Origin: a virus
DNA: 38,986 bases
IMG/VR virus record: IMGVR_UViG_3300031084_000004
Location: 1-38,986 of that record
Reading direction: 5' to 3' (one strand)
Shown one piece after another: positions 3,057 to 38,986 of this stretch. The notes below the pieces were generated by a model that saw only the letters and a program-made list of their open reading frames with translations, ran no database searches and was not told where the DNA came from. Each line of letters starts with the position of its first letter. Position 1 is the stretch's first letter. The position numbers and the translations under genes are program-made.

Positions 3057-3063
3057 ATGCACA
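3049..3063. promoter_or_regulatory. Operator OL2, degenerate copy AGTGCCAAATGCACA
   Basis: 11/15 match to OL1. Centre-to-centre distance to OL1 is 26 bp. Confidence 0.55.
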
Positions 3064-5262: not shown

Positions 5263-5429
5263 TCGTGGATCACGCAAACCCGTACCACGACGCGTTCTGC
5301 CGGTGCCGTGCGTGCAAGCCGCCGCTGGTCGGTGACCATACGCAGAAGACGGTCGCTCGCATTCGTGTGGTAACCGGGGCTGCTGCTGTCGCTGCTGCGA
5401 TCGTGCTGGGCAAGGGGCTGGGGCTGTGA
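5259..5429 (+). CDS. Small Cys-rich protein with C-terminal hydrophobic tail (56 aa)
   Basis: Own translation, below the track cutoff: VIVDHANPYHDAFCRCRACKPPLVGDHTQKTVARIRVVTGAAAVAAAIVLGKGLGL. GTGA overlaps at both ends; AGGAG 8 nt upstream. Confidence 0.45.
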   Translation: MIVDHANPYHDAFCRCRACKPPLVGDHTQKTVARIRVVTGAAAVAAAIVLGKGLGL

Positions 5430-6364
5430 GCATCATCACCGCGCCCGGCGCGTATCCGGACATCAGCAACGAGGACTATCACGGCCGTGAAATCTGCCCC
5501 GCACCGTCGATCAGCTCGACCGGCTTGAAGAAGATGGTGGGCGGTCCGTTCCAGGCGAAGGGCTGCACGCCGCGACACTACTGGGAAGGATCGCCGCTCA
5601 ATCCGAACCGCAAGCCGCAGGAACAGACGGATGCGCTTCGGCTGGGATCGGCCTTCCATGACGCGCTGCTGCTGCCTGCGCGGTGGATGGATCGGAACTG
5701 CTATCACGTCACGCCGGAAGGTTTCAGCCGCGCCAAGACTAAGGCCATGGCTGGCGACATTGCCGACGCCGACGCGGCGGAAGCGGCTGGCTGCACGATC
5801 GTCAGTGCTGAAGAGCGCGACCAGATCAACGCCATGGTCAAAGCCATGCGCGAGCATCCGACGTGCGACGCGCTGCTGACCGGCGGTCAGGCGGAAGTGA
5901 CACTGGCGTGGAAGGACGAAGAAACCGGCGTCTGGCTGCGCTGCCGTCCTGACTTCCTCCGCGACAACCTGTCGTGCGGGATCAACGTCAAGACGGCTGC
6001 TGACGCTTCGTTCGCGGGCTTTCAGAGCGACGTGACGAAGTACCGCTACTTCATGTCCGCCGCGCTCGAACTCGACGGGATCGAAGTCGTGATGGGCAAG
6101 CGCCCGCCGCTCTACGTCCACCCGACAATCGAGAAGCCGGGGAAGGGGTGGCAGCCCGGTGATTACCTGCCGGTCGCGCTGTGGACCCTGACCGACGAAG
6201 ATCTTGCCCATGGTCGTGCGCTCAACCGCATCGCCATCCGCCGCTTTGCCGACTGCCTGAGCGCGGATCGCTGGCCCGGTTACGCCGATGAGCCCGCTGC
6301 CTGCGGTGTCAGCGGCTGGGCGCGCAAACAGATTGACGAACTCATTGAGAAGGAGGCCGCATAA
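5426..6364 (+). CDS. RecE-like PD-(D/E)xK exonuclease (DUF3799/exodeoxyribonuclease VIII-like)
   Basis: 312 aa. The N-terminal GAYPDISNEDYHGREICPAPSISSTGLKKM is the signature start of this family. Sits directly upstream of recT. Confidence 0.75.
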   Translation: MSIITAPGAYPDISNEDYHGREICPAPSISSTGLKKMVGGPFQAKGCTPRHYWEGSPLNPNRKPQEQTDALRLGSAFHDALLLPARWMDRNCYHVTPEGFSRAKTKAMAGDIADADAAEAAGCTIVSAEERDQINAMVKAMREHPTCDALLTGGQAEVTLAWKDEETGVWLRCRPDFLRDNLSCGINVKTAADASFAGFQSDVTKYRYFMSAALELDGIEVVMGKRPPLYVHPTIEKPGKGWQPGDYLPVALWTLTDEDLAHGRALNRIAIRRFADCLSADRWPGYADEPAACGVSGWARKQIDELIEKEAA

Positions 6365-7071
6365 TGGCTACCGCAATTCAGAATGTCGAAGAACAGCCCC
6401 GCAAGGTCGTAGTCGCATCGGGCAACAAACTGGCGGCTTTCGTGCCCGCCACGCTGGACGAAGCATGGCGGCTCGCTGGCGCGCTCGCTCACTCGGGCAT
6501 GACCCCGAAGGCCTACGGTGCTGACCAGAACAAGATCATGGTCGGCATCATGGCCGGGGCGGAAGTCGGGCTGACCCCGTTTGCCGCACTCCAGTCGATC
6601 GCGGTCATCGGCAACAACCCGTCCCTCTGGGGCGATGGCGCACTTGCCCTGATCCAGGCATCGGGCCTGCTTGAGGACATGGAAGAGATGGACGACGGCA
6701 ATGTCGCCACGTGCCGCCTCAACCGGGTCGGCCGCGCTACGCCGATTGTCCGGTCGTTCAGCATGGAGGACGCCAAGAAGGCTGGGCTAGCCGGAAAGTC
6801 GGGTCCGTGGTCGCAATATCCGGCCCGTATGCGCCAGATGCGCGCCCGTGCCTTTGCCTTGCGCGACGGCTTCTCGGACGTGCTGAAGGGCCTGCACATC
6901 GCTGAGGAAGCCCGCGACTATCAGCCGATGGGGTCCGTCCCGGTCACGACCGCACAGCCCCTGACTTCCGCCGCCCTGCTCGGTCAGTCCGAACCTGTCG
7001 ACACCACCCCCCTTGACCCCAACGCTGGTGAGAAGCGGGGCGACGAGGACATGGGGGAGGCGGGGGAATGA
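6364..7071 (+). CDS. recT: RecT-family single-strand annealing protein
   Basis: 235 aa. Contains AGAEVGLTPFAALQSIAVIGNNPSLWGDGALALI and SGPWSQYPARMRQMRARAFALRDGF, typical RecT blocks. Confidence 0.85.
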   Translation: MATAIQNVEEQPRKVVVASGNKLAAFVPATLDEAWRLAGALAHSGMTPKAYGADQNKIMVGIMAGAEVGLTPFAALQSIAVIGNNPSLWGDGALALIQASGLLEDMEEMDDGNVATCRLNRVGRATPIVRSFSMEDAKKAGLAGKSGPWSQYPARMRQMRARAFALRDGFSDVLKGLHIAEEARDYQPMGSVPVTTAQPLTSAALLGQSEPVDTTPLDPNAGEKRGDEDMGEAGE

Positions 7072-8605: not shown

Positions 8606-9207
8606 CCATCCGACAGACGCCGGATGCTGTGCGCGAGGCGATCCGAGAGGATATAGCAAAGCAGCTTGATGAGCCGTGGCGCGACCGTGTGATCCTCCGA
8701 CCGGAGCAATGGCAGATCGTCCTCGCCGCCCTCGACAGCCGCGCGGGCGATGCGGGGGATAGAACGGCATTGCCGCCGGGATGGAAGTCGTGGACCGGCG
8801 GGGCCTTCGCACCGCAGGACTATGGCGGGCGTTACATGCTCCGCAACGGGTCGCTCCATGAATGGCGACCGGGCGACAGTGCTGGTCCAAGCTGGAAGTG
8901 GGAATATGGCGACGGTGACGTCGTCGCATACTTCGCCACCCCCGCGCCCGCTGTCGATGCGGTCCCGGCGGGGGAGGCCGAGCCGTCACTCAACAGGCAC
9001 GACCTGTATCGGTTCATGGATACGCTCAAGCTGTCCGAGAAGCGCGACGTGGCAAAGGCGATCGGCTTCGACCCGGCACCCTTGCCCGGAGAGAATGACA
9101 TGAACCGCTGGCGGCGCATGTGGCTGTGGGCAGGAGAAAACGGCAAGCGTTCCGAGTTGGCGACGGCAATCCGCGCCGCCCTCTCGCACGGGGAGGGGCG
9201 GAAGTGA
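8602..9207 (+). CDS. Hypothetical protein (201 aa)
   Basis: ATGA-coupled ORF with no recognisable motif. Confidence 0.55.
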   Translation: MTIRQTPDAVREAIREDIAKQLDEPWRDRVILRPEQWQIVLAALDSRAGDAGDRTALPPGWKSWTGGAFAPQDYGGRYMLRNGSLHEWRPGDSAGPSWKWEYGDGDVVAYFATPAPAVDAVPAGEAEPSLNRHDLYRFMDTLKLSEKRDVAKAIGFDPAPLPGENDMNRWRRMWLWAGENGKRSELATAIRAALSHGEGRK

Positions 9208-9896
9208 GCCAGAAGCCGCGAATCTTGGACTTGTTCTGTTGCGCTGGCGGTGCGGCGATGGGCTATCATCAGGCCGGGTTCGATGTGGTCGGTATCGATC
9301 TGCATCCCCAGCCGCGCTACCCGTTTGGCTTCATCCAAATGGATGCGCTCGCTGTCGACAAGCGGTTCCTGCGCACCTTCGACGCAATCCACGCCTCGCC
9401 ACCGTGCCAAGGCTATACGGCGATGCGCCACGCTCCAGGCGCGAAGGGCGCACCCCGGCTGATCGCGCAGGTTCGCGAGATGCTTGAAGCTACCGGCCTG
9501 CCGTGGGTGATCGAGAACGTCGAGGAGGCCCGCTCCGAGATGCGGGAGCCTATCATGCTGTGCGGTTCAGGTTTTGACCTCGGCTCGCATGGCTGTGAGC
9601 TGCGTCGCCACCGCCTCTTTGAGAGCAATGTCGGCCTGTATAGCATGGGATGCCAGCACGGCGATAAGCCAGTGGTCGGGGTCTATGGCGGACACGCTCG
9701 CATCCGATCGGCGCGACATGGCGGTCGTGGCACCCGCGACGCCTGGCCAAATGGTCACAAGCCGGTCGCGGCTGAAGCTATGGGCATGGACTGGGCAACC
9801 CTTGCTGAAATGAGCGAGGCCATCCCGCCCGCGTACACACGGTTCATCGGGATGCAGCTTATGCAGCATGTCCGCGCCAATCGGCTCGCCGCATGA
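9204..9896 (+). CDS. DNA (cytosine-5)-methyltransferase, orphan
   Basis: GTG 9204 (GTGA overlap). Motif I ILDLFCCAGG, motif IV HASPPCQGY, motif VI VIENV. No adjacent restriction endonuclease candidate. Confidence 0.85.
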   Translation: MSQKPRILDLFCCAGGAAMGYHQAGFDVVGIDLHPQPRYPFGFIQMDALAVDKRFLRTFDAIHASPPCQGYTAMRHAPGAKGAPRLIAQVREMLEATGLPWVIENVEEARSEMREPIMLCGSGFDLGSHGCELRRHRLFESNVGLYSMGCQHGDKPVVGVYGGHARIRSARHGGRGTRDAWPNGHKPVAAEAMGMDWATLAEMSEAIPPAYTRFIGMQLMQHVRANRLAA

Positions 9897-9947
9897 CCGC
9901 CTCCGGTTTCGCGATGAGCGAGAGCAACAGGGTTAGGGGAGGGAGGG

Positions 9948-10310
9948 ATGGGTAGTTACGCGCATGAGCGGGCTAAGACCCCGGCGCAATGGTGTGCCGA
10001 GTTCGCGTCCCGTCAAATTCCAATGTCCGAACGCGCATTGAGGTCGAAGGCCCGCGCGATCGGCGCCTACATTACGCTCGGCAAGGCGATGCTGATCACG
10101 CCTGAGCAAATTGACCATATTCTAGAGGACGGCGCATGCCACTCGAACCCTATCTCCGTGGCACGACCTGGTGGGCAAAAGGCCGTATCCAGTTCAACGG
10201 GCGCGACATCACCGACTACATCCGCGAAAGCACTGGCGCATCTACAGAAGATGGCGCGCGGCAGTGGATCGCGGAACGTCAGGCGCGCGAAGAGCGGCGG
10301 ACGGTCCTAG
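9948..10310 (+). CDS. Excisionase-like/HTH protein; the last 175 nt overlap int out of frame
   Basis: Strong RBS (GGGAGGGAGGG) before ATG 9948. The first ~62 aa look protein-like (..ALRSKARAIGAYITLGKAMLITPEQIDHILEDG). The tail beyond 10136 is low-complexity S/T/G/R. Confidence 0.45.
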   Translation: MGSYAHERAKTPAQWCAEFASRQIPMSERALRSKARAIGAYITLGKAMLITPEQIDHILEDGACHSNPISVARPGGQKAVSSSTGATSPTTSAKALAHLQKMARGSGSRNVRRAKSGGRS

Positions 10311-11254
10311 GCCATGAAGAGGCACAGGAGCGCGAGTTCACGTTCAATGATGCGGTTGTTCTGTATGCGGCAACCGAGCAAATGGCGCGCTATCTGATCC
10401 CTATCGTTGAGCGCATTGGCGCACTGCCGATCAAGAAGATCACCCCGAAGATGATCCGCGAACTCGGGCGCGACCTGTATCCTGACAATGCCGTCGACAC
10501 ATGGCGGCGCTGGGTTATCGCTCCTGCGCGGGCAGTCATCAACAATGCCAGCGAGCTAGGCCACTGCCCGCCGATCCGTATTCCAGGCTACGACAAGCAG
10601 GAGCGCGTCAAGCAGGATCGGGCGCGCGGTAAGGTCAGCCGCAAGCCGAAGGTGCCTGGTGATTGGGACTGGATCCTCGCTTTCCGCGCGAAGGCTAGCA
10701 AACGGCACGCGGCCCTAGCGCTATTTATGTTCACGACCGGCGCACGGATTGGGCAGGCCGTCGCGATGCACCCCGACAATCTCCATCTGGATGAAGGCAA
10801 GGCCGTCATCCCCGGAGCCAAGGGACACGACGATCGCACTGTCCAGCTTATGCCAGAGCTGGTCGAAGAGTTGCGCGCTTTGAGGCCTAAGGTTCCGCGT
10901 GGCTGGGATGCACGCTATCGCCGCAACCTCCGGGTCTTCGGTTTTGCCGACAAGGATGGCCCGCGCAGCGGCTGGCGGACTGCCTGCAAGCGCGCTGGTA
11001 TCCCATACTTGCCGCCCCATTCTGCCGGTCGCCATGGCTTCGGGCAGGAAATGCGCGTTCGCCAAGGCGTCGATAGCAAGTCCGTCGAAAGCGTCGGTGG
11101 CTGGTCTGCAAAGGGCGGGATGGTCGACAAGATTTACACCCATGCCGAGGACAGCGACGCCAAGATTTTGGAGGCTCTTCGTACAGGTTTCGTACAAGCC
11201 GAAAATAAGATTAGCGCCAAGGCCGCAAAAATGCTAGAAAAAGATGATGAATGA
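10136..11254 (+). CDS. int: Tyrosine integrase
   Basis: 372 aa. Contains TTGARIGQAVAM (Arg I), HSAGRHGFGQEM (H-x-x-R) and KIYTHAE (catalytic Tyr). GAGGA RBS 6 nt upstream. Confidence 0.9.
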   Translation: MPLEPYLRGTTWWAKGRIQFNGRDITDYIRESTGASTEDGARQWIAERQAREERRTVLGHEEAQEREFTFNDAVVLYAATEQMARYLIPIVERIGALPIKKITPKMIRELGRDLYPDNAVDTWRRWVIAPARAVINNASELGHCPPIRIPGYDKQERVKQDRARGKVSRKPKVPGDWDWILAFRAKASKRHAALALFMFTTGARIGQAVAMHPDNLHLDEGKAVIPGAKGHDDRTVQLMPELVEELRALRPKVPRGWDARYRRNLRVFGFADKDGPRSGWRTACKRAGIPYLPPHSAGRHGFGQEMRVRQGVDSKSVESVGGWSAKGGMVDKIYTHAEDSDAKILEALRTGFVQAENKISAKAAKMLEKDDE

Positions 11255-11257
11255 TAG

Positions 11258-11307
11258 CTGCCCTCCGAAGGCAGAGGCCACAGGTTCGAATCCTGTCGGG
11301 TGCGCCA
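11258..11307 (+). other. attP core candidate: 3' 50 nt of a tRNA-Arg(CCG), from the anticodon arm to CCA
   Basis: CTGCC-CTCCGAA-GGCAG (anticodon CCG), AGGCC, ACAGG-TTCGAAT-CCTGT (T arm), CGGGTGC-G-CCA. No D arm or 5' acceptor strand upstream, so it is a fragment. Starts 4 nt after the int stop. Confidence 0.75.
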
Positions 11308-11432
11308 CCTTTTCCGCCGTTTGTGGCGATTCGCACCAGCCTCATGCTCGTAGAACCGTGCAGGAACATGCGCGGCCAAAACCGGAACGCGCGTACAATC
11401 GCCGTACATTGCCGCCTGCGCCTCCGGGGGCT

Positions 11433-11795
11433 ATGCCTTACGAGTCGTGGAGCAAGCTTGACCACGAGGTCATCTACTTCGTCGGCGCAGAGCGCGGCCC
11501 GGTAAAGATCGGCCGCTCAATCTCCCTCGTCCGCCGCATCCGTGAATTGCAGGTGGGTCATCCGGGGTTGCTGCATGTCTGGGCCATCGTGCCGGGCAAC
11601 AATCTCGATGAGGCGATCTACCACCACCGCTTCGCCAAGGATCGCGTGTGGGGAGAGTGGTTCGCACGCTCTGACGATATGCAGGAATTTTTGGACAGCC
11701 GGGCAGTGATGCGCGGCGATCTTCGGTTGCCCGCCCCGCGCCAACGGGACGGGCTGCCACAACGCAATGGAGGTGCGTGTGACGAACGATTGTAA
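11433..11795 (+). CDS. T5orf172/MUG113 (GIY-YIG-like) domain protein
   Basis: Start MPYESW at ATG 11433. VIYFVGAERGPVKIGRSISLVRRIRELQVGHPGLLHVWAIVPGNNLDEAIYHHRFAKDRVWGEWF matches the T5orf172 pattern. The ORF-track N-terminal extension runs through the tRNA fragment. Confidence 0.65.
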   Translation: MPYESWSKLDHEVIYFVGAERGPVKIGRSISLVRRIRELQVGHPGLLHVWAIVPGNNLDEAIYHHRFAKDRVWGEWFARSDDMQEFLDSRAVMRGDLRLPAPRQRDGLPQRNGGACDERL

Positions 11796-12018
11796 CACAT
11801 TCATTGAAGGAATGAATCCCGGCTGGGTCGAGTGGACTGGTGGCGAATGCCCTGTTCCGTTCAAGACGATTGTTCAAATCAAGCTGCGTGATGGAGCAGT
11901 AGAACGACCTCGCATTGCTGGTTTTTGGATGCGGACTGACGATGACCGCTCCTATTGGCAGCACGAGCCGAACGACCACAATAACGACATTGTCGCCTAC
12001 CGTGTGGTGCACGCATGA
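11767..12018 (+). CDS. Hypothetical protein (~79-83 aa)
   Basis: Start is ambiguous: ATG 11767, or GTG 11779 with GGAGG 5 nt upstream. Overlaps the previous gene by 17-29 nt. Confidence 0.5.
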   Translation: MEVRVTNDCNTFIEGMNPGWVEWTGGECPVPFKTIVQIKLRDGAVERPRIAGFWMRTDDDRSYWQHEPNDHNNDIVAYRVVHA

Positions 12019-12410
12019 CCGACCTGACCGAGCGGCTGCGGAAGCGGGCGGATGAGGACGCCAAGTGCGCGGAGAACAGCAAGGTCGTCGCTGACCTATT
12101 GCGACCGCAGCTTGATGCGTTCGAGGCTAATGAGGATCATGGCAACATCTATGCCATCCGCATGGCTGTGGATCATCGCGATAGCGTAAAGCGCGACGGC
12201 CAATATGCCGCTGACCTTCGCGAAGCCGCCACCACCCTCGAAACCCTCACGCAGGAAAACGCGCGGCTGAGGGAGTTGTGCGATGCGGCTTGTTCAAACG
12301 CTGAAACGGCGCTGGATTTCTTGGCTAAGGCGGGACGTCCTGAACTAGCAAAAATCCAAGCCATTTATGTCGCTAACCTCCGCAAAGCCCTCGGAGGCGG
12401 CGATGAGTAA
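12015..12410 (+). CDS. Hypothetical helical protein (131 aa)
   Basis: ATGA-coupled; coiled-coil-like composition. Confidence 0.55.
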   Translation: MTDLTERLRKRADEDAKCAENSKVVADLLRPQLDAFEANEDHGNIYAIRMAVDHRDSVKRDGQYAADLREAATTLETLTQENARLRELCDAACSNAETALDFLAKAGRPELAKIQAIYVANLRKALGGGDE

Positions 12411-12651
12411 GGCGAACCAAGCTGTTGGGTATCGCCTCTACTATGAGGATGATTTAGCCGAACGCGAATGGTTCGAGCGGCAGTGGAAGATATGGCCTGA
12501 GCGCGCGCATCAAGATCGCACCACGAACGTCTCTTTCCATTACGGCGGGGTATGCGCCTTTCGCGAGATCAATGGCCGCGATCCAGCGATGAGCAAGGAT
12601 TTCGCCAGCCATGTTGCTTGGCATGATCGGCACAAGGAACCCCACCCATGA
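12403..12651 (+). CDS. Hypothetical protein (82 aa)
   Basis: ATG 12403 with GGAGG upstream. Begins MSKANQAVGYRLYYEDDLAEREWFERQWKIW. Confidence 0.5.
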   Translation: MSKANQAVGYRLYYEDDLAEREWFERQWKIWPERAHQDRTTNVSFHYGGVCAFREINGRDPAMSKDFASHVAWHDRHKEPHP

Positions 12652-13037
12652 CCAACACCGACGCGAAGATCATGCGGGAGGCGGGGCTACGGGTGCTGGT
12701 CTGCGGTGGTCGTGATTATGACGACCGCGATCATATCTGGAACACGCTGACCGCGATCCATGGCGAGTGTAAGATCAGCCTAGTCATCCATGGCGCTGCG
12801 ACCGGTGCCGATAGTGAGGGGATGCTGTGGGCCGATTGCATGCCCGGCTGCAAGCACGCTCCTTTCCGCGCCGACTGGCGGACTCATGGCAAGGCAGCTG
12901 GTCCGATCCGCAACCAACGGATGCTGGACGAGGGGAGGCCCGATCTGGTCGTCGCTTTCCCTGGCGGTCGCGGCACCGCTGATATGGTCCGCCGCGCCAA
13001 GGCCGCTGGTATAGAAGTCCGGGAGATACGCCCATGA
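12648..13037 (+). CDS. Stand-alone SLOG-fold protein (DUF2493/YspA-like)
   Basis: 129 aa. Contains VLVCGGRDYDD..., VIHGAATGADSEGMLWA, WRTHGKAAGPIRNQRML and VVAFPGGRGTADMVRRAKAAGIEV, the conserved DUF2493 blocks. Confidence 0.7.
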   Translation: MTNTDAKIMREAGLRVLVCGGRDYDDRDHIWNTLTAIHGECKISLVIHGAATGADSEGMLWADCMPGCKHAPFRADWRTHGKAAGPIRNQRMLDEGRPDLVVAFPGGRGTADMVRRAKAAGIEVREIRP

Positions 13038-13222
13038 CCGACCCCACCGAAATCGCGCGCGTCGCGAGTAATTGGTCGTTTGGGTTCGCTTCATTTGCCA
13101 GCGTGGTTGGCTCAATGTTGGCGACCCGCGCTAACTGCACCGACACCGCGAAAATCTTGGCGTTCGCCAGTATCCTATTCTTGGCCGTAGCGCTGAAAGG
13201 CATGGTCTATGGAAAGCGCTGA
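13034..13222 (+). CDS. Small membrane protein (62 aa)
   Basis: Two hydrophobic stretches (WSFGFASFASVVGSMLA; ILAFASILFLAVAL). The N-terminal TEIARVA is shared with the next ORF. Confidence 0.5.
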   Translation: MTDPTEIARVASNWSFGFASFASVVGSMLATRANCTDTAKILAFASILFLAVALKGMVYGKR

Positions 13223-13460
13223 AATCGCGCGCGTCGCGGCTGGGCTGACGGATCAGCAACGTGGTGCATTGCTCAAGGCAAGCGTTGATTGGAAGCAGAT
13301 CCACAGCCCCGGCACCGGAGCATACAAGGGCGCTAGGATGAAGCCGTTGGTCGATTATAGCGGATGGGAAGGCCAGCATGGATGGCGTCACAGTGTACGC
13401 CTTTCCGGCTTCGGTATCGCCGTCCGTGACTATATCCTCAAGGGGACTGGCCGTGGATAA
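13209..13460 (+). CDS. Hypothetical protein, paralogue A (83 aa)
   Basis: Begins MESAEIARVAAGLTDQQRGALLKA and ends GFGIAVRDYILKG. Related to the next ORF. Confidence 0.5.
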   Translation: MESAEIARVAAGLTDQQRGALLKASVDWKQIHSPGTGAYKGARMKPLVDYSGWEGQHGWRHSVRLSGFGIAVRDYILKGTGRG

Positions 13461-13689
13461 CGAAATCGCTCACATCGCCAAAGGGCTGACGTGGGCGCAA
13501 GAATACGCGCTCACTTGGCTTGGCACGACGATTGGCTGCGTGGCCAGCAACCGAAGGCTTGCCGACAGCTTGGTTTATAAGGGGTTGGCAGTTCGCACGC
13601 CCTACTCGCACAATGCGCGGATGCTTGACTGGACAAAGCGCGGCCGCGCCGTCCGCGACCACATCCTGCGGGAGAAGAGCGGTGGGTGA
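13453..13689 (+). CDS. Hypothetical protein, paralogue B (78 aa)
   Basis: GTG 13453 overlaps the upstream TAA by 8 nt. Begins VDNEIAHIAKGLTWAQEYALTWL and ends RGRAVRDHILRE, the same pattern as paralogue A. Confidence 0.45.
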   Translation: MDNEIAHIAKGLTWAQEYALTWLGTTIGCVASNRRLADSLVYKGLAVRTPYSHNARMLDWTKRGRAVRDHILREKSGG

Positions 13690-13975
13690 GAAGATTGAAG
13701 GCGTCGTAATCGTCCACTTCAATGAAGATGGCGAGATGAGTTATCACGTCTTTGGCGAGAAGGTGCGGCTGTTCATCGTAGACGAGCGGGTGCCGAATGA
13801 TCGCGTGTACGAATGGCTGAGCCGGTCAGAGCCTAGCCAGCTGCGTGAGATGATCCCGGCCGGTAGTGACATCGGCAACCAAAATGACGAACGCCACGAG
13901 GCCATCAAGCACCGCGTCTTAGCGGCTGGCGATGGGCGGTCGTACCTGTCTGTAGTGGAGAATGACCATGACTGA
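13682..13975 (+). CDS. Hypothetical protein (97 aa)
   Basis: GTG 13682 overlaps the upstream stop by 8 nt. Begins VGEKIEGVVIVHFNEDGEMSYHVFGEKVRLFIVDERV. Confidence 0.45.
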   Translation: MGEKIEGVVIVHFNEDGEMSYHVFGEKVRLFIVDERVPNDRVYEWLSRSEPSQLREMIPAGSDIGNQNDERHEAIKHRVLAAGDGRSYLSVVENDHD

Positions 13976-14258
13976 CGTGAAGGTCGAGCAGTGCGACCGA
14001 GTGGCAGCCGCTGGCACTATCCCGGACGATGGTTCGCATGTCTCGCACATGATGGTTGATGCCATCCTTAACGGTCGTGCTGATGACTGGCCCCTCGTTC
14101 TCGCCTTCGCCCGCCACCGCCAAGCAGCCGAGAAGGCGACGCGGGAGCGGGATGCGGGGATTGCTGAGGATTGGATTGATGAGGCGTTCGCGACGGACCA
14201 TGAGAACCGCATCGCTCGTTCTATCGCCACCGCCATCAGGAGCCAGAACGATGGGTAA
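13962..14258 (+). CDS. Hypothetical protein (98 aa)
   Basis: ATG 13962 or 13968; overlaps the previous gene's stop. Confidence 0.5.
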   Translation: MTMTDVKVEQCDRVAAAGTIPDDGSHVSHMMVDAILNGRADDWPLVLAFARHRQAAEKATRERDAGIAEDWIDEAFATDHENRIARSIATAIRSQNDG

Positions 14259-14688
14259 ACTGGAAGAAGCAATCATCCTCGCAACACAGGCCCACGCCGG
14301 TCAGGTCGACAAGGGCGGCGCGCCATACATCTTCCATCCGCTCCGGGTGATGATGGCGATGACCAGCGAACAGGATCGCATTGTCGCGGTGCTGCACGAT
14401 GTGGTCGAGGACAGCGATTATGAGCTGACTAACATTGCCAGCCAATTCGGCGTGGCTGTGTACGATGCTGTCGACGCGCTGACCCGGCGTGATGGCGAGA
14501 CGTACGAGGCTTTCGTCGAGCGGTGCTCCAAGAACACAACCGCCCGGCGCGTGAAGCTCGCGGATCTGGCGGATAATATGGACCTGAAACGCTTGGGCCG
14601 TGACCCCACGGCAGAGGATGCGCGCCGGTTCCACCGCTACAACAGCGCGCGGGCGTATCTGACGACATTTGGAGACGACCATGACTGA
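14251..14688 (+). CDS. HD-domain small alarmone hydrolase (RelA/SpoT-homologue hydrolase-only protein)
   Basis: ATG 14251 (AGGAG 9 nt upstream). ILATQAHAGQVDKGGAPYIFHPLRV, AVLHDVVEDS and VKLADLADNM are the H / HD / ED / (A)D..N motifs of the (p)ppGpp hydrolase domain. 145 aa, with no synthetase domain. Confidence 0.7.
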   Translation: MGKLEEAIILATQAHAGQVDKGGAPYIFHPLRVMMAMTSEQDRIVAVLHDVVEDSDYELTNIASQFGVAVYDAVDALTRRDGETYEAFVERCSKNTTARRVKLADLADNMDLKRLGRDPTAEDARRFHRYNSARAYLTTFGDDHD

Positions 14689-14860
14689 CTTGCTGACCCT
14701 GACCCGCTTCGCGATCGGCCGGGCGCTGGTTCATGCTGGTCTATCCGTGATGCCAGCCGGTCGCGTGCGATCCGAGCTTTCCCAGCTTTACGAGGTCTGG
14801 GCTACTCGCGCTCGGGACCGTGCCATCAAGCCTTACCCTCACCCCCTGGATATGGAGTGA
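14681..14860 (+). CDS. Hypothetical protein (59 aa)
   Basis: ATG 14681 with GGAG upstream; overlaps the hydrolase stop by 8 nt. Confidence 0.45.
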   Translation: MTDLLTLTRFAIGRALVHAGLSVMPAGRVRSELSQLYEVWATRARDRAIKPYPHPLDME

Positions 14861-15249
14861 CCATGACTGACTTGCTGGAACTCGCTGCCAGGGTCGAGGG
14901 GCTGACCGGGCCGGATCGGGAGGTGGATGCGCTGGTATGGCTGCATCTGCCCGAGCAGGCTGGCCATGCGTGGAAGCACGATGGAAACAAGAAGGCACAC
15001 GCCCGCCAAATTGCTGGTGTGCCCTTCGTCCCCGTGTATACGGCTTCGGTCGACCATGCCCTCAAGCTGGTGCCGAATGGTGCGTGGGCAGAGGGTTCGC
15101 TTGGATCGCACGTTGATCGGCGTTCATCGCTGGAGATCCATAAGCCCTGCACATATGATCCCATCGGGCGCGCTACCGCAGCCACCCCAGCCCTAGCTCT
15201 AGTCTCCGCCTGTCTCCGCGCCCGCGCGCATGGGGGAGGGGAGGGGTGA
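14857..15249 (+). CDS. Hypothetical protein (128-130 aa)
   Basis: GTG 14857 (GTGA overlap) or ATG 14863. Begins MTDLLELAARVEGLTGPDREVDALVW. Confidence 0.55.
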   Translation: MTMTDLLELAARVEGLTGPDREVDALVWLHLPEQAGHAWKHDGNKKAHARQIAGVPFVPVYTASVDHALKLVPNGAWAEGSLGSHVDRRSSLEIHKPCTYDPIGRATAATPALALVSACLRARAHGGGEG

Positions 15250-15371
15250 TGCACATTTTCCACCGCTGGTCGAAATGGCGAGACGTGGCGACAGGTGAAA
15301 GCGGCCACGTCCTCCAAGAAAAACGCTGCGCCATCTGCGGAAAGGCAATCAGAGAATGGAGCTGGAAGTGA
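15249..15371 (+). CDS. Small zinc-ribbon-like protein (40 aa, DUF1660-like)
   Basis: Own translation, below the track cutoff: MHIFHRWSKWRDVATGESGHVLQEKRCAICGKAIREWSWK. TGATG overlap with the upstream stop. Confidence 0.45.
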   Translation: MHIFHRWSKWRDVATGESGHVLQEKRCAICGKAIREWSWK

Positions 15372-15703
15372 CCGATAACCCGCTGGTCGAGGCTGTGGCG
15401 CGGGCTGTCGCTGCGTCGGAATGGGAGGCAGGCTATGGCCTAGAAAAGCTGCTATACCGGACAAAAAATGAGGCAGCCGATGCGGCATGGCCTGACTTCT
15501 GTGGTCAAGCCCTCGCCGCCCTCCGCGCGATCGAGGACGCGGGGTGGAAGGTGGTGCCGGTTGAGGCAACGCCGGAAATGGAGATTGCAGCGACCGAGGA
15601 TTGGATGACGATCAGAGCTGCCGAGGATAGGGCAGTAGCAATCTGGTCCGCTATGCTGGCTGCCGCTCCTACCTTTACGAAGGTAGATGACTCTGCTAGA
15701 TAA
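15368..15703 (+). CDS. Hypothetical protein (111 aa)
   Basis: GTG 15368 (GTGA overlap, GGAG 8 nt upstream); ATG 15356 is the alternative. Last gene before the terminator. Confidence 0.5.
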   Translation: MTDNPLVEAVARAVAASEWEAGYGLEKLLYRTKNEAADAAWPDFCGQALAALRAIEDAGWKVVPVEATPEMEIAATEDWMTIRAAEDRAVAIWSAMLAAAPTFTKVDDSAR

Positions 15704-15734
15704 TTGCTGTCAAGACGCAACCTTGGCTGTACTG

Positions 15735-15774
15735 AAACCGCTCGGCAATCCAGACTGTCGGGCGGTTTTTCTTT
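15735..15774 (+). terminator. Rho-independent terminator of the rightward accessory operon
   Basis: AAACCGCTCGGCA-loop-TGTCGGGCGGTTT stem (about 10 bp with 2 mismatches) followed by TTTTTCTTT. Confidence 0.7.
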
Positions 15775-16279
15775 GCATATTGAGGGTGACAACGTAGCGC
15801 CACCCTCCTAGCCCGATGCCGAAGCAGAGCGGGGACCTGAAACTGGAGCGGAGGCGGGGAGTTGCACCCTGCCGTTTCTGTATGGTCGCAGGCCTAGGAA
15901 CCGCTCCCACCATATCCCCGCAATCTCGGGTCCGCATAGGTGCCGGTCTTTCCCGGCTGTCAGGTTTCACAGCAGCACTGGATCGCCTCAGCCGCAAGCT
16001 ATGTCCCAGCCCTTGCGAGGGGCCAAAAAGAGATGAACCACCGTCCATCCCATCCCTCCGCATATCGAAGAGGGGAAGTATGCTGCACCGACCCCTTAGC
16101 ACACCGTTGGCTTAGCTACTTGGTCAGTCGGTCGCCAGTGCAACCCAGCCACTTTACACGACTCGGTCAGAAATGCTAGCGGGGATGCGTCGCTGAAGAG
16201 CGCGGTTTTTGATCGAACCAAGGGCTGCCCGGCTCTCCAACACCTAGGGTCTGGAAGATGGTCCAGACAGTCGGGCAGT

Positions 16280-16453
16280 TCACTCCACCCGCAAATTCAA
16301 CCGCCGCTCCACCTCATCCTGCGCCGCCTGCCGCAGAGCATCGACGGCTACTTGCTTGGTCAGCGGATTCTTGTCCGACGCCACAGCTTTGCCAATCGCG
16401 CGGACGGCGATCTTGAGTGCAAAATTCGCGATTGCGCCGATCGGGAGTTTCAT
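16280..16453 (-). CDS. Small amphipathic protein (57 aa), last gene of the late/lysis operon
   Basis: Own translation: MKLPIGAIANFALKIAVRAIGKAVASDKNPLTKQVAVDALRQAAQDEVERRLNLRVE. ATGA overlap with the upstream stop. Confidence 0.45.
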   Translation of the reverse strand: MKLPIGAIANFALKIAVRAIGKAVASDKNPLTKQVAVDALRQAAQDEVERRLNLRVE

Positions 16454-16701
16454 GGGGTGGTTTCCTTTGGTGCGGATGCTGCGAGCTGATCGGTGAGAGC
16501 GCCGGTCCGCTCGTCAGTCCATGCGGCGCGGATGGTCGTCACGATGTCTTTCGAGAATACCAGCAGACCGCCCGCGATCGTTCCCAAGAGCGTCTGGCTG
16601 TCGCTCGGGATACGGGACGAAATTGCGCCCCATGAGATGCCGCCCAGGATCAGCAGGGCTAGGGCAGCGAGGCCGAATAGAGCGGCGCGGTCGCGGTTCA
16701 T
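16450..16701 (-). CDS. Two-TM membrane protein (83 aa), holin/antiholin or spanin-type lysis accessory candidate
   Basis: Hydrophobic segments AALFGLAALALLILGGISWGAI and LLGTIAGGLLVFS. Directly downstream of the endolysin. Confidence 0.45.
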   Translation of the reverse strand: MNRDRAALFGLAALALLILGGISWGAISSRIPSDSQTLLGTIAGGLLVFSKDIVTTIRAAWTDERTGALTDQLAASAPKETTP

Positions 16702-17288
16702 GCTGCCATCTCCCCCGTCTTACCTTGGAGCCACGTCAGGAATTGCGCCACGGTTTTTCCACGCAGGATCGACGGGTTAGCTTGGGTCGCGGCATCACCC
16801 GCCAGCAAGTCAGCTCGCGCACCCTTGTCTGCACCGATCACTTTCGCGGCGGTCTGCGGCCCGAAGAAATGGGCGGCGTAGAGCGATGCTTTGTTGATCG
16901 GAATGCCTTGGCGCGCGAGATAGGCTGCATTCTTCTCAGTGAAGGTCAGAGCGCGTGCCGTCTGCTCCTCCGGCGTCGGCTTCAACCCACCGAACGCCTG
17001 CGATGCGTCTACACCCCATTTGCCGCCCTCGCCAAGCCATGTCGACTTGATGAACTGGTACAGGCCTGAGGCGCTGGATGTCGGCGCTTTGACATACGGA
17101 CGATTGCCGCTCTCGATCTTCGCTAGCATAGGCCAATAATCGTCGGGGATTTTCGGCTGAGCATCCATTCTCTGCATCTCAAAGCTGTCCGCCAGCGCGT
17201 CAATGACCTGCACATGGCTGGCGAGAAATTTGCGGTCAGGCGCGAATGGCCGGATCGCGTCGAACAGGGCGGTGCGGCGGTCGGTCAT
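16698..17288 (-). CDS. Endolysin, SLT/lytic-transglycosylase-like
   Basis: ATG 17288 (ATGA overlap). MLAKIESGNRPYVKAPTSSASGLYQFIKSTW fits the catalytic E-S ... GLxQ motif of SLT-type muramidases. Confidence 0.7.
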   Translation of the reverse strand: MTDRRTALFDAIRPFAPDRKFLASHVQVIDALADSFEMQRMDAQPKIPDDYWPMLAKIESGNRPYVKAPTSSASGLYQFIKSTWLGEGGKWGVDASQAFGGLKPTPEEQTARALTFTEKNAAYLARQGIPINKASLYAAHFFGPQTAAKVIGADKGARADLLAGDAATQANPSILRGKTVAQFLTWLQGKTGEMAA

Positions 17289-37372: not shown

Positions 37373-37526
37373 TACTTCCGCAAGCAATTTCAACGACTTG
37401 GCGTTTACCTCCGCTTGCTTCCGCAGTACTTCCGCAAATGTACTTCCGCAGTACTTCCGCAAGCAATTTCAATGGGTTAGCGGCAATGGTGCGGAAGTAA
37501 CCCATCACCGACCACCTACTTCCGCA
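37373..37526. repeat. Iteron cluster, putative origin of replication: TACTTCCGCA x5 direct, one variant, one inverted
   Basis: Direct copies at 37373, 37427, 37441, 37452 and 37517. Variant TGCTTCCGCA at 37416. Inverted copy TGCGGAAGTA at 37490..37499. Two copies extend to a 21-bp exact repeat, TACTTCCGCAAGCAATTTCAA (37373..37393 and 37452..37472). Confidence 0.7.
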
Positions 37527-38986
37527 GGCCGCTCGGGCCACCGAACGACCCGCAAACCCTGCTTTTTCGAATGGCTGTCGACCTGCTCGGTCGCGATCAA
37601 TTCGGCCGCACCCCATGCCTTGATCTGTCCGATCGCGGCGTTGCGACTGATCTTGAAACGGCTTTGCAGCCAAGTGCCGAGATACCGTTCGGTGGCGTTG
37701 TGGGATGCCGAAAACGGGTTCCCTTCGCGCCAGCGGCGGTCGATCTCGCACAGCGCATACCAAGCGTGGGCATCGCTGAATTGGTGGCCAACGGGAGCGC
37801 CGTCATCCTCCTGAGGAGGCAAGACGAACGTGCCGTTCATCCACATGAAACCAATCTCTGTGCCCTTGCGGGCATAGTTGGCTTTCTCATTGCGAAGGAC
37901 GCGATAGTCGGGGTCAACAACCACGCCATCGTCGTTCTTCGGGGTTTCGAGGAACAGGCGCGAGCGCACCTGATTTTCCCAGGCGGTTGAGCCTGAGTAG
38001 CTGTCACCGGCTTTATTGGGGAAGCCGACCATGGTGACGGCACCGTCAATCGCGCGCGCCATGGCGTTGCACAGATTGACGAAGGCCGCGACCTCTTGAC
38101 GGGCGTTCTCGTTGCCGGTGAACATATGCGAGGTATTGTCAAGGGACACGTGACGGACGCTCAGCGCCAGCGACGTGTCGACAATCTCCCCGTATCGTTT
38201 GGAAGCACGAATGGTGCGCGCCTCATCGAAAGTGCAAAGCTCGTTGCCTGGCTCGCCGTAAAGCGACAGCAGGTGAACCTTGCCGCGCGTATCCTCCAGG
38301 CTGATGCCCAACCCGGCGCAGATTGCCGCCTGACGGCGATGCAACTCGCTCGGATCGTCCTCGCAGGTGATATAGAGAGTGGGCACCTGCTCGACCTCAA
38401 CACCCAGGAAGGGCAGGCCCATACCGATGCAGGTGCATTTCAGCTGTTCCAGCAGCGATTTACCAGCCGCACCAGCGCCCGTCAGAAGCGTGGCTTGGTG
38501 GTAGGGTACCAAGCCTTCGACCATCCAGCGGCGCTCGGGGATGTCTTGCCCCTGCCAATCCGCAGGCGAAATGACGCCAAGCGGCAGACCGGTGTGCGGG
38601 GCGAAGCAAGCCGCAACATCGTCCAGCCCGTAATGTGCAGCCTGGTCGTTGAAGTCTGTGCCATCGGCGCCCATCATCTCAGGTGCGACGACGCGGCCCT
38701 TCACCGCATCCGCAGCGCGCTGAGCATCCTCAATGCCGTTAGTATCGGCAGCGATTATGATCTCGCGACCGGGATAGCGCTGCGCCGCGATCTCAGCAGT
38801 CAGGAGTAACGCGCCTTTGCTGAAGCCGATCAGCACCAAATAGCCAGTTGCCGCCTGCACCGTAGCAGCGGTCGCAAAACCTTCGGCCACAACGACCGGT
38901 CCGCTTTCAGCGTTGCCGATCGCGAACGTCCCGCCTTTAACCGGCACGCCCGCATGGAACAGCTTTTTGCCACCAGCTTCGGGTGG
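37505..38986 (-). CDS. Primase-helicase, TOPRIM plus P-loop (RepA/DnaB-like) part; the N-terminus is at 1..652
   Basis: VVVAEGFATAATV...EIIIAADTNGIEDAQRAADAV (TOPRIM-like), then LLTGAGAAGKS (Walker A) and LYITCEDD (Walker B-like). The frame is open to the window end, and 38860..38986 duplicates 1..127. Confidence 0.85.
   Translation of the reverse strand, partial: PPEAGGKKLFHAGVPVKGGTFAIGNAESGPVVVAEGFATAATVQAATGYLVLIGFSKGALLLTAEIAAQRYPGREIIIAADTNGIEDAQRAADAVKGRVVAPEMMGADGTDFNDQAAHYGLDDVAACFAPHTGLPLGVISPADWQGQDIPERRWMVEGLVPYHQATLLTGAGAAGKSLLEQLKCTCIGMGLPFLGVEVEQVPTLYITCEDDPSELHRRQAAICAGLGISLEDTRGKVHLLSLYGEPGNELCTFDEARTIRASKRYGEIVDTSLALSVRHVSLDNTSHMFTGNENARQEVAAFVNLCNAMARAIDGAVTMVGFPNKAGDSYSGSTAWENQVRSRLFLETPKNDDGVVVDPDYRVLRNEKANYARKGTEIGFMWMNGTFVLPPQEDDGAPVGHQFSDAHAWYALCEIDRRWREGNPFSASHNATERYLGTWLQSRFKISRNAAIGQIKAWGAAELIATEQVDSHSKKQGLRVVRWPERPAEVGGR
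38860..38986. repeat. Terminal overlap, copy 2 (identical to 1..127)
   Basis: Direct comparison of both ends. Confidence 0.95.

Follow-up and report, generated by a model that had tools for sequence, protein, structure and literature searches.

We analysed the region from 11433 to 15703 (+ strand) of a 38,986-nt stretch of viral DNA (IMG/VR record IMGVR_UViG_3300031084_000004, positions 1 to 38,986; the whole stretch is hereafter called the window), in which an array of fifteen short open reading frames (ORFs), numbered g1 to g15 in their order, follows a phage attachment site (attP). This region is probably the distal, hypervariable part of the + strand early operon, made of independent accessory cassettes that meet at short linkers, and not a multi-gene machine. 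It is the hypervariable accessory block of a temperate phage, i.e. a kind of region that is already known, and its linker architecture, though also of a known kind, is its most interesting feature. The sole gene of the array with a well-supported predicted activity is g11, whose product is best named an Aph1-family (p)ppApp hydrolase on the basis of its sequence.

We took 74 IMG/VR loci with relatives of g5, which codes for a SLOG protein, and 37 with relatives of g11, each with flanks of 8 kb (individual loci are designated by L numbers). L213, a prophage of Sphingomonas sp. NPDC019816, and L185, an IMG/VR prophage contig with an accession of the isolate-genome form, are collinear with the array and match it in segments of 26-63 nt only, with 97-100% identity (83-89% for a few of them). 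These matching segments sit at gene ends and starts. An exact search with the first 35 nt of g5 yielded seven more contigs from IMG/VR and metagenomes, and looking up a second junction and a g10 homologue led to L251-253, a 47.8-kb phage with a different integrase and a different endolysin domain. There are about nine distinct related arrays (L185, L213, L243/L248, L244, L246/L250, L247, L249 and L251-253), which have up to 14 linkers in the same order and with 97-100% nucleotide identity, at widely varying distances from each other. The linkers, 26-55 nt in length, take in the final codons of the upstream gene, the overlap of its stop with the following start, and the 8-13 codons with which the downstream gene opens. 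Identity breaks abruptly at their edges, and the DNA between them is unrelated or strongly diverged. The linkers in the window are the following.

12013 to 12046, + strand: J3 (stop of g2, start of g3, MTDLTERL), 100% identical in L213, L244, L246, L248, L250 and L251
12221 to 12275, + strand: J3m (inside g3), 95-100% identical in six relatives
12380 to 12407, + strand: J4 (end of g3, Shine-Dalgarno sequence GGAGG, ATG of g4), 100% identical in L213, L246, L250 and L251
12643 to 12689, + strand: J5 (stop of g4, start of g5, 13-codon leader), exact 35-mer in eight other public contigs, with sharp edges on both sides
13022 to 13066, + strand: J6 (end of g5, start of g6), 97-100% identical in seven relatives
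13221 to 13250, + strand: J7 (second half of the leader of the g7/g8 family)
13641 to 13695, + strand: J9 (end of g8, start of g9), 92-100% identical in eight relatives
13966 to 13999, + strand: J10 (stop of g9, start of g10), 97-100% identical in L185, L243, L247 and L248; covered only within longer alignments in L244 and L251 (75% and 84% identity, respectively)
14095 to 14169, + strand: J10m (inside g10), 89-97% identical
14222 to 14253, + strand: J11 (end of g10, ATG of g11), 100% identical in L243, L244 and L248
14860 to 14897, + strand: J13 (start of g13), 97-98% identical in L243, L247 and L248
15214 to 15251, + strand: J14 (end of g13, start of g14), 92-100% identical in seven relatives
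15369 to 15401, + strand: J15 (start of g15), 97-100% identical in L243, L244, L246, L247, L248 and L251
15503 to 15556, + strand: J15m (inside g15)

The cargo between these linkers differs from array to array. The leader that is part of J5, MTNTDAKIMREAG, precedes seven mutually unrelated proteins, of which the SLOG protein is one. The segment of 606 nt that comprises g11 and g12, from J11 to J13, is missing in L243, L247 and L248, in which J11 abuts J13, and in L244 J11 abuts J15. Similarly, g11 is absent from L185, L244 and L251, and no related array covering this slot contains g11 and g12. The slot between J6 and J9 spans 586 nt in the window versus 173-200 nt in the relatives, and it holds g6 and the duplicated g7/g8 pair. 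Both window-specific insertions, namely g6 and g11 with g12, are bounded by perfect direct repeats of 18-19 nt of a leader. Finally, the array was not found in phages whose integrases are 98%, 80% and 79% identical to that of the window; DNA similarity to these phages stops at 11307 or 11408, just before g1.

We compared the linkers with the backbone of the phage. The sole backbone gene shared between the window and L213 is that of the endolysin (95% protein identity and 86% DNA identity), in which 66% of the codons for conserved residues are identical, i.e. 34% synonymous codon change. In contrast, not one of the approximately 64 linker codons differs between the window and L213, with a P of ~4e-12 at the 66% rate. 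Judging from these codon identities, the linkers are much younger than the backbone. Linker-type segments are also present at 9169-9207 and 9887-9923, at the start and the end of a methyltransferase gene located upstream of the integrase gene; they are 97-100% identical and common to L251 and L116. Conservation of junctions therefore extends beyond the 15 genes into the early operon.

Two observations relate to alternative cargo. In L213, the slot after the MUG113-like gene (13820-13320, - strand) codes for a 165-aa protein that looks like a phage N6-adenine methyltransferase by its sequence. Outside of the array, the product of the endolysin gene (16698-17288, - strand) shares its first ~44 residues (MTDRRTALFDAIRPFAPDRKFLASHVQVIDALADSF...), with 95% identity, with that of L185 (10001-10570). 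The remainder of the protein differs, being lysozyme-like in L185 and transglycosylase-like in the window, and thus a shared leader is followed by swapped cargo.

Other origins of the linkers were considered and rejected. An assembly chimera is ruled out by the presence of the linkers in the isolate genome L213; they are also found in three further isolate genomes as judged by the format of their IMG accessions (L185, L244 and L246). An integron-like array with attC sites is ruled out as well, as the junctions are devoid of inverted repeats and unlike each other, and the integrase gene adjoins a tRNA-derived attP core. Similarly, a diversity-generating retroelement is ruled out because the variable segments are of unequal length and lack homology to each other instead of being altered by point mutations.

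It could also be argued that the junctions are kept by their function, either as elements for translation initiation or coupling or as N-terminal targeting peptides similar to the capsid-targeting leaders of T4 internal proteins. Several linkers hold the Shine-Dalgarno sequence and the start codon of the gene that follows, the J5 leader is in frame with seven of eight cargo genes, and many cassettes start with MTD or MTN. Nevertheless, we find this explanation improbable, as the synonymous sites of the linkers are invariant too, versus the 34% synonymous codon change in the backbone protein. Furthermore, linkers are also found mid-gene (J3m, J10m and J15m), their identity breaks abruptly, and the leaders differ between slots, so that there is no common tag.

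In the proposed mechanism of the cassette array, cassettes would be swapped when co-infecting phages and resident prophages recombine through the homology of their linkers. The exchange is probably assisted by the RecE/RecT pair encoded upstream in the same operon.

5426 to 6364, + strand: RecE-like exonuclease (phrog_412 exonuclease VIII, E = 3.5e-66; Pfam DUF3799 in the 5426-7071 context)
6364 to 7071, + strand: RecT-like single-strand annealing protein (phrog_561, E = 9.5e-36)

RecET is the likely catalyst because such recombinases act on short, imperfect homologies, and the length of the linkers fits. Relaxed homologous recombination by phage recombinases has been documented (De Paepe et al. 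2014, PMC3945230). In turn, cassettes would be added, duplicated or deleted by ectopic recombination where leaders are alike. Many of the cassettes begin with ATG-ACN-GAC, and the starts of g12 and g13 have 19 identical nt in common; such similarity between leaders could explain the insertions, the duplication and the deletions. Regarding expression, transcription would read from the early operon across the integrase gene and attP in the circular genome and stop at the terminator at 15734. Integration would separate the array from the early promoter and place it directly 3' of the rebuilt tRNA gene, and because of this location low-level read-through is possible in lysogens. Each cargo gene would act alone.

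A more specific proposal, which we put forward tentatively and hold to be somewhat less likely than its contrary, is that, in this group of Sphingomonas phages, the linkers are standardised landing pads for the phage's own RecET-type recombinase, kept near-identical across otherwise unrelated backbones. If so, the operon would be a homologous-recombination counterpart of the integron, capturing and swapping accessory genes that include Aph1-type counter-defence genes, and it would illustrate, in nature and with unusual clarity, the linker model of modular phage evolution.

An earlier note on this DNA had proposed the fifteen genes as a candidate counter-defence or lysogenic-conversion island, in which an undescribed system that manipulates host nucleotide signalling or immunity might be sought. 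Read as one co-functioning system, the SLOG protein would sense or sequester a nucleotide signal and the HD-domain hydrolase coded by g11 would degrade it. Both domains are indeed nucleotide-related, and the Aravind group has predicted that the YAcAr SLOG domains of phages act on NAD+- or ADP-ribose-derived signals (PMC7824862). One locus, L073, has relatives of both genes ~1 kb apart on the same strand. However, L073 is the only one of about 110 viral loci with relatives of g5 and g11 together (tblastn, E <= 1e-3). Clustering of the same-strand ORFs within 4 kb showed that every neighbour family is limited to at most 6 of the 74 SLOG loci and at most 5 of the 38 HD loci, and none of the 15 proteins matched PADLOC defence models at E <= 0.01. 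In addition, neither the SLOG nor the HD gene was found in the roughly nine arrays that share the junctions of the window, the SLOG slot being occupied by six other unrelated genes or collapsed. The genes were thus found to form a random mosaic rather than a set co-conserved in relatives, which the note itself had named as the outcome that would speak against its proposal. We therefore abandoned the idea of a SLOG-plus-HD unit, which is not worth pursuing as such, and consider a single system very improbable; g5 and g11 are independent genes that arrived separately. The same families also recur in arrays without these linkers: in L027/L151 (IMGVR_UViG_3300047470_000529), a 50-kb phage with a 67%-identical endolysin, SLOG, g13-like and g8-like genes are reordered relative to the window.

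Several points weigh against an array of independent cassettes. The slots of g3, g4, g8, g10, g13 and g15 hold diverged homologues (29-70% protein identity), still with patches of 100% identity, and part of the array (g3, g8, g10, g13 and g15) is a conserved family set. The perfect identity of the linkers could partly reflect selection on translation initiation or on N-terminal peptides. Very distant HD or SLOG relatives in neighbouring genes may have escaped the co-occurrence analysis at the threshold used. Finally, no promoter was located for the array, which may be an early-lytic block or one expressed in lysogens.

The basic anatomy described in the earlier note was confirmed, namely an accessory, non-core block of fifteen short ORFs, joined by ATGA, GTGA or TGATG junctions or 8-nt overlaps, that lies beside attP and ends at a strong terminator. 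With start codons picked by best context, the stop-to-start distances from g1 to g15 are -17, -4, -8, -4, -4, -14, -8, -8, -8, -8, -8, +2, -1 and -4 nt. In all 15 frames the GC content at third codon positions (0.56-0.75) is higher than that at second positions (0.33-0.52), which is of the coding type. Independent gene calls on the source contig (ENA ERZ27247400 k141_218975) agree with ours; they miss only the 40-aa g14 and lengthen g1 at its 5' end. For the three folds recognised in the note, i.e. those of g1, g5 and g11, a Pfam match above the cut-off was found, narrowly so for g1. The genes are as follows.

11433 to 11795, + strand: g1, 120 aa, MUG113/T5orf172-like, GIY-YIG clan
11779 to 12018, + strand: g2, 79 aa, phrog_9174 family (E = 2.7e-17)
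12015 to 12410, + strand: g3, 131 aa, recurring slot
12403 to 12651, + strand: g4, 82 aa, recurring slot, ~70% identical in L244 and L248
12648 to 13037, + strand: g5, 129 aa, YAcAr-family SLOG protein with the 13-residue leader MTNTDAKIMREAG
13034 to 13222, + strand: g6, 62 aa, hydrophobic, leader of the g7/g8 family plus a 154-nt insertion
13209 to 13460, + strand: g7, 83 aa, g7/g8 family
13453 to 13689, + strand: g8, 78 aa, paralogous to g7, slot that recurs in eight related arrays with 33-44% identity
13682 to 13975, + strand: g9, 97 aa, slot occupied by unrelated genes in relatives
13968 to 14258, + strand: g10, 96 aa, recurring slot, 48-57% identical in related arrays
14251 to 14688, + strand: g11, 145 aa, Aph1-family HD-domain (p)ppApp hydrolase by homology, cassette in this array only
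14681 to 14860, + strand: g12, 59 aa, first 19 nt identical to the start of g13 (14677-14695 = 14859-14877; repeat family D4)
14863 to 15249, + strand: g13, 128 aa, alpha+beta, widespread uncharacterised phage family
15249 to 15371, + strand: g14, 40-aa miniprotein with one CxxC motif, other genes in this slot in relatives
15368 to 15703, + strand: g15, 111 aa, phrog_5913, recurring slot, 37-44% identical in relatives

The match of g1 to Pfam MUG113 exceeds the cut-off by a narrow margin (26.0 bits versus 22.3; E = 1.4e-5), and that to T5orf172 is below threshold (14.1 bits versus 20); g1 also matches phrog_8130 (E = 2e-14). For g2, no Pfam, NCBIfam or PDB match was found. The alleles of g3 are 29-36% identical, and yet they have 100%-identical patches at the start, in the middle and at the end. 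The insertion in g6 is bounded by an 18-nt perfect direct repeat (13049-13066 and 13221-13238; repeat family D1), and at this position the relatives have a single gene whose product begins with MTDPTEIA(R/H)VAAGL.... The paralogy of g7 and g8 is weak in a pairwise comparison (30% identity, E = 3e-4), but single homologues in the relatives bridge both. The g10 family comprises 41 protein clusters, and all those with a named source are from Sphingomonas. L185 harbours a 91%-identical homologue of g12, fused there to the last residues of g13.

None of the 97 protein clusters of the g13 family has a Pfam domain. The AlphaFold2 model of g13 is confident (pLDDT 91.5), and its Foldseek matches are uncharacterised phage proteins only (E = 1.7e-5); its resemblance to dsRBD, DUF2591 and ABA-sandwich folds is weak. 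For g15, the start is most likely the GTG at 15368 (MTDNPL...) rather than the ATG at 15356, because the relatives have an ATG at the former position. NCBIfam searches with ten array proteins gave only sub-threshold RelA/SpoT matches, for g11, and PDB sequence searches with g1, g2, g5, g13 and g15 gave no meaningful match. Beyond the matches given here, the searches with the array proteins, including those of Pfam and PHROG, returned nothing.

The product of g11 matches Pfam HD_4 (33.9 bits versus a cut-off of 27.2) and phrog_990 (E = 1e-42). Its best solved relative is PDB 7SMG, '(p)ppApp hydrolase' (E = 8.1e-30), which is Aph1, or adenosine 3'-pyrophosphohydrolase 1, of a temperate phage of Bacteroides caccae (Ahmad et al. 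2023, PMC10083569). Residues 4-140 of g11 align to residues 8-144 of the 149-aa Aph1, i.e. a single HD domain from end to end, and the HD motif of g11, H49-D50, is aligned with that of 7SMG. The Aph family is set apart from (p)ppGpp hydrolases by residues D24, R96, D116, R119, K133 and Y134 (PMC10083569), to which D20, R91, D111, R114, R129 and Y130 correspond in g11. Thus, five of the six signature residues are identical, and the sixth is a conservative replacement of K133 by R. Both residues that set the specificity of Aph1, D24 and R119, have counterparts in g11.

Therefore, the 'alarmone hydrolase' of the earlier note stands as an HD hydrolase and can be given the narrower Aph1-family name, while the joint role with the SLOG protein is not retained. 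The most likely activity of g11 is hydrolysis of (p)ppApp, through which toxins of the (p)ppApp-synthetase type would be neutralised; it probably detoxifies (p)ppApp produced by toxins of the host or of competitors. A role in counter-defence or immunity is plausible for g11 alone, because the founding member of the family neutralises (p)ppApp-synthetase toxins. Similarly, the phage small alarmone hydrolase (SAH) PaSpo has been used to neutralise toxSAS toxins (PMC9712102). Hence, g11 is a testable candidate against (p)ppApp-producing toxins, e.g. of the toxSAS type or of the Tas1 type delivered by type VI secretion systems, and represents an Aph1-family member in an alphaproteobacterial phage without a cognate toxin.

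In Bacteroides caccae, Aph1 is the immunity protein of the phage MuF-fused (p)ppApp synthetase Apk2 (PMC10083569). By analogy with this arrangement of the founding member, g11 might confer immunity to a (p)ppApp-synthetase toxin that this phage itself encodes. We give this little credence: no RelA/SpoT-synthetase (RSH) or MuF domain is on record among the called genes of the genome, nor was one found in ten late proteins. Moreover, MuF genes are neighbours of only 0.4% of the 1,181 Aph sequences examined for genomic context (PMC10083569), and the presence of g11 without a neighbouring synthetase toxin agrees with most Aph homologues lacking a MuF context. Like Aph1, g11 is phage-encoded and consists of a single HD domain (145 aa versus 149 aa). 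Unlike Aph1, it has no adjacent or detectable (p)ppApp-synthetase toxin, it is located in an early accessory array rather than beside a head-morphogenesis MuF gene, and its activity is predicted from homology.

The product of g5 matches PF10686 over profile positions 2-66 of 66 (67 bits versus a cut-off of 28.2, E = 1.3e-18) and phrog_289 (E = 3.8e-27); no solved relative was found by sequence search. It is thus predicted to be a nucleotide-binding or nucleotide-processing SLOG protein. Most of its 76 tblastn relatives begin to align at residue ~14, past the leader. The YAcAr (DUF2493) family, to which g5 belongs with a score well above threshold, is common in phages, as indicated by the 74 IMG/VR loci and by its presence in jumbo phages (PMC7824862). 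In contrast with the family at large, g5 is a stand-alone domain that bears an array-specific 13-residue leader; the roles of YAcAr proteins in the literature are predictions.

The window is a circular permutation of a 39,000-bp metagenome assembly (ENA ERZ27247400 k141_218975), as the primase/helicase gene (- strand; coding for 668 aa on the source contig) is split by the ends of the window (1-~560 and 37505-38986). The window looks like a complete temperate phage genome, with a GC content of 61%; the host is probably a relative of Sphingomonas. The - strand codes for the primase/helicase, SSB, terminase, P22-type portal, capsid, virion and lysis proteins and ends near 16280; its portal and virion proteins belong to P22-type families. 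The + strand operon begins near 3057, with in order a repressor-like gene, recE, recT, an RNase H-like gene, a C5 methyltransferase gene, the integrase gene, attP and the array. A search of INPHARED phages with the whole region returned only the tRNA fragment and a 122-nt SLOG patch, and no related phage. Rfam searches of the whole window (gathering threshold) and of 11200-16400 (E-value threshold) returned a partial tRNA only. The features that frame the array are the following.

10136 to 11254, + strand: tyrosine integrase
11257 to 11307, + strand: attP core, the 3' part (~51 nt) of a tRNA-Arg(CCG), anticodon arm through CCA, read from the sequence
11308 to 11432, + strand: P' arm of attP and untranslated leader of g1
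15734 to 15779, + strand: intrinsic terminator at the operon end (folding free energy -23.6 kcal/mol; z = -3.3 versus shuffles)
15779 to 15844, no strand assigned: conserved non-coding patch past the terminator, 84-96% identical in L118, L213, L244, L246, L247 and L251

A small ORF without a PHROG match at 9948-10139 (+ strand), directly 5' of the integrase gene and overlapping its start, could code for an excisionase.

The 3' part of tRNA-Arg(CCG) starts 3 nt past the integrase stop codon. Rfam recognises it as a partial tRNA (24.3 bits), no whole tRNA is called there by ARAGORN, and the core matches, with 92% identity, the 3' 49 nt of the tRNA-Arg(CCG) that ARAGORN called in the Sphingobium metagenome-assembled genome L224. 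DNA similarity to L116, the integrase of which is 98% identical, ends precisely at the CCA of the tRNA (11307 in the window), past which a different element begins in L116. The adjacency of the tRNA 3' part to the integrase gene and the end of similarity at the CCA identify 11257-11307 as the attP core. In L116, a gene for a large serine recombinase with resolvase and recombinase domains (10999-12780, - strand) is found immediately after the tRNA-derived core, an arrangement that points to another mobile element in tandem at this tRNA site.

Within the leader of g1, the segment 11358-11408 is kept in three phages with integrases 66-80% identical. The fold of 11308-11432 is not more stable than those of shuffles (z = +1.35), and a consensus scan, which is crude for alphaproteobacteria, found no sigma-70-like promoter or terminator between the attP core and g1. 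At the other end, the terminator consists of a 14-bp stem and an 8-nt loop (15734-15769) followed by the U tract UUUUUCUUUG; it was seen by its fold relative to shuffles and overlooked by the consensus scan. A second conserved non-coding patch is present at 15936-15964, and both patches are within the 576 bp that separate the convergent operons. In L118, the counterpart of the first patch adjoins a phage-encoded tRNA-Arg(CCT) (13333-13409 of L118). Neither patch has a tRNA or Rfam match in the window.

The location next to attP raises the question of lysogenic conversion, i.e. of a moron-type island transcribed in the lysogen by read-through from the host tRNA gene and beneficial to the lysogen, for instance against (p)ppApp toxins. 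This alternative concerns the timing of expression and the beneficiary, and it is compatible with the cassette-array anatomy. In P22-like phages, the slot from attP to the end of the late operon carries conversion genes such as gtrABC and oac. Two lysogens have a tRNA gene followed by the array on the same strand. In L213, a tRNA-Gln gene, with host genes beyond it, is separated by 105 nt from a MUG113-like gene, and in L230 a tRNA-Val gene precedes a MUG113-like first gene. The stretch from the tRNA end to g1 has no predicted terminator, and the strong one lies at the far end. On the other hand, classic morons have their own promoter and none was found for the array by the consensus scan, the genes of the array being contiguous and codirectional with the early operon and the integrase gene, and most of the cargo is unlike defence genes. 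Lysogenic conversion is thus possible on positional grounds only, and we deem it rather unlikely.

The MUG113-like gene is the first one after the integrase gene or the tRNA in L117, L121, L213 and L251, in addition to its presence in L230. Its being a universal first gene after attP is only partly true, as it is absent from L118, L122 and L124.

Considered as an array of independent cassettes, the region is a catalogue of alternative cargo for each slot, and small host-takeover or anti-defence genes could be mined there singly. The presence of a linker at nearly every junction makes it a tractable natural system to measure recombinase-driven, gene-by-gene mosaicism.

Parallels to this organization exist in other phages. 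PeSLs, which flank cassettes in T4-type phages, are non-coding and repeated many times within one genome. In contrast, the linkers of the window are slot-specific, mostly coding and devoid of inverted repeats. The T4-type hyperplastic regions, with their PeSL-mediated modular shuffling, similarly contain small, mostly unknown and dispensable early genes that are swapped singly and are flanked by short conserved motifs, described in the titles of the papers as mobile regulatory cassettes of composite promoter-terminator motifs (Arbiol et al. 2010, PMC2839356; Comeau et al. 2014, PMC4122927). The genes of the window differ in that they are translationally coupled in one operon of a temperate phage.

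The gtrABC/oac locus of P22-like phages occupies the corresponding place, and the genome of the window likewise has P22-type portal and virion-protein families. The cargo of the window is nevertheless unrelated, it has no evident promoter of its own, and it consists of many small coupled genes versus one conversion operon. Lambdoid mosaicism, with the linker idea of Susskind and Botstein, is together with the T4-type regions the closest parallel, and it shares with the window gene-by-gene exchange at boundaries in early non-essential regions, short stretches of identity flanking non-homologous DNA, and the encoding of annealases of the RecT, Redbeta or Erf type (PMC3945230). Relative to lambdoid phages, the host clade is that of the sphingomonads, nearly every junction of a 4-kb array is a linker, and these linkers are collinear in about nine arrays whose backbones share little other DNA.

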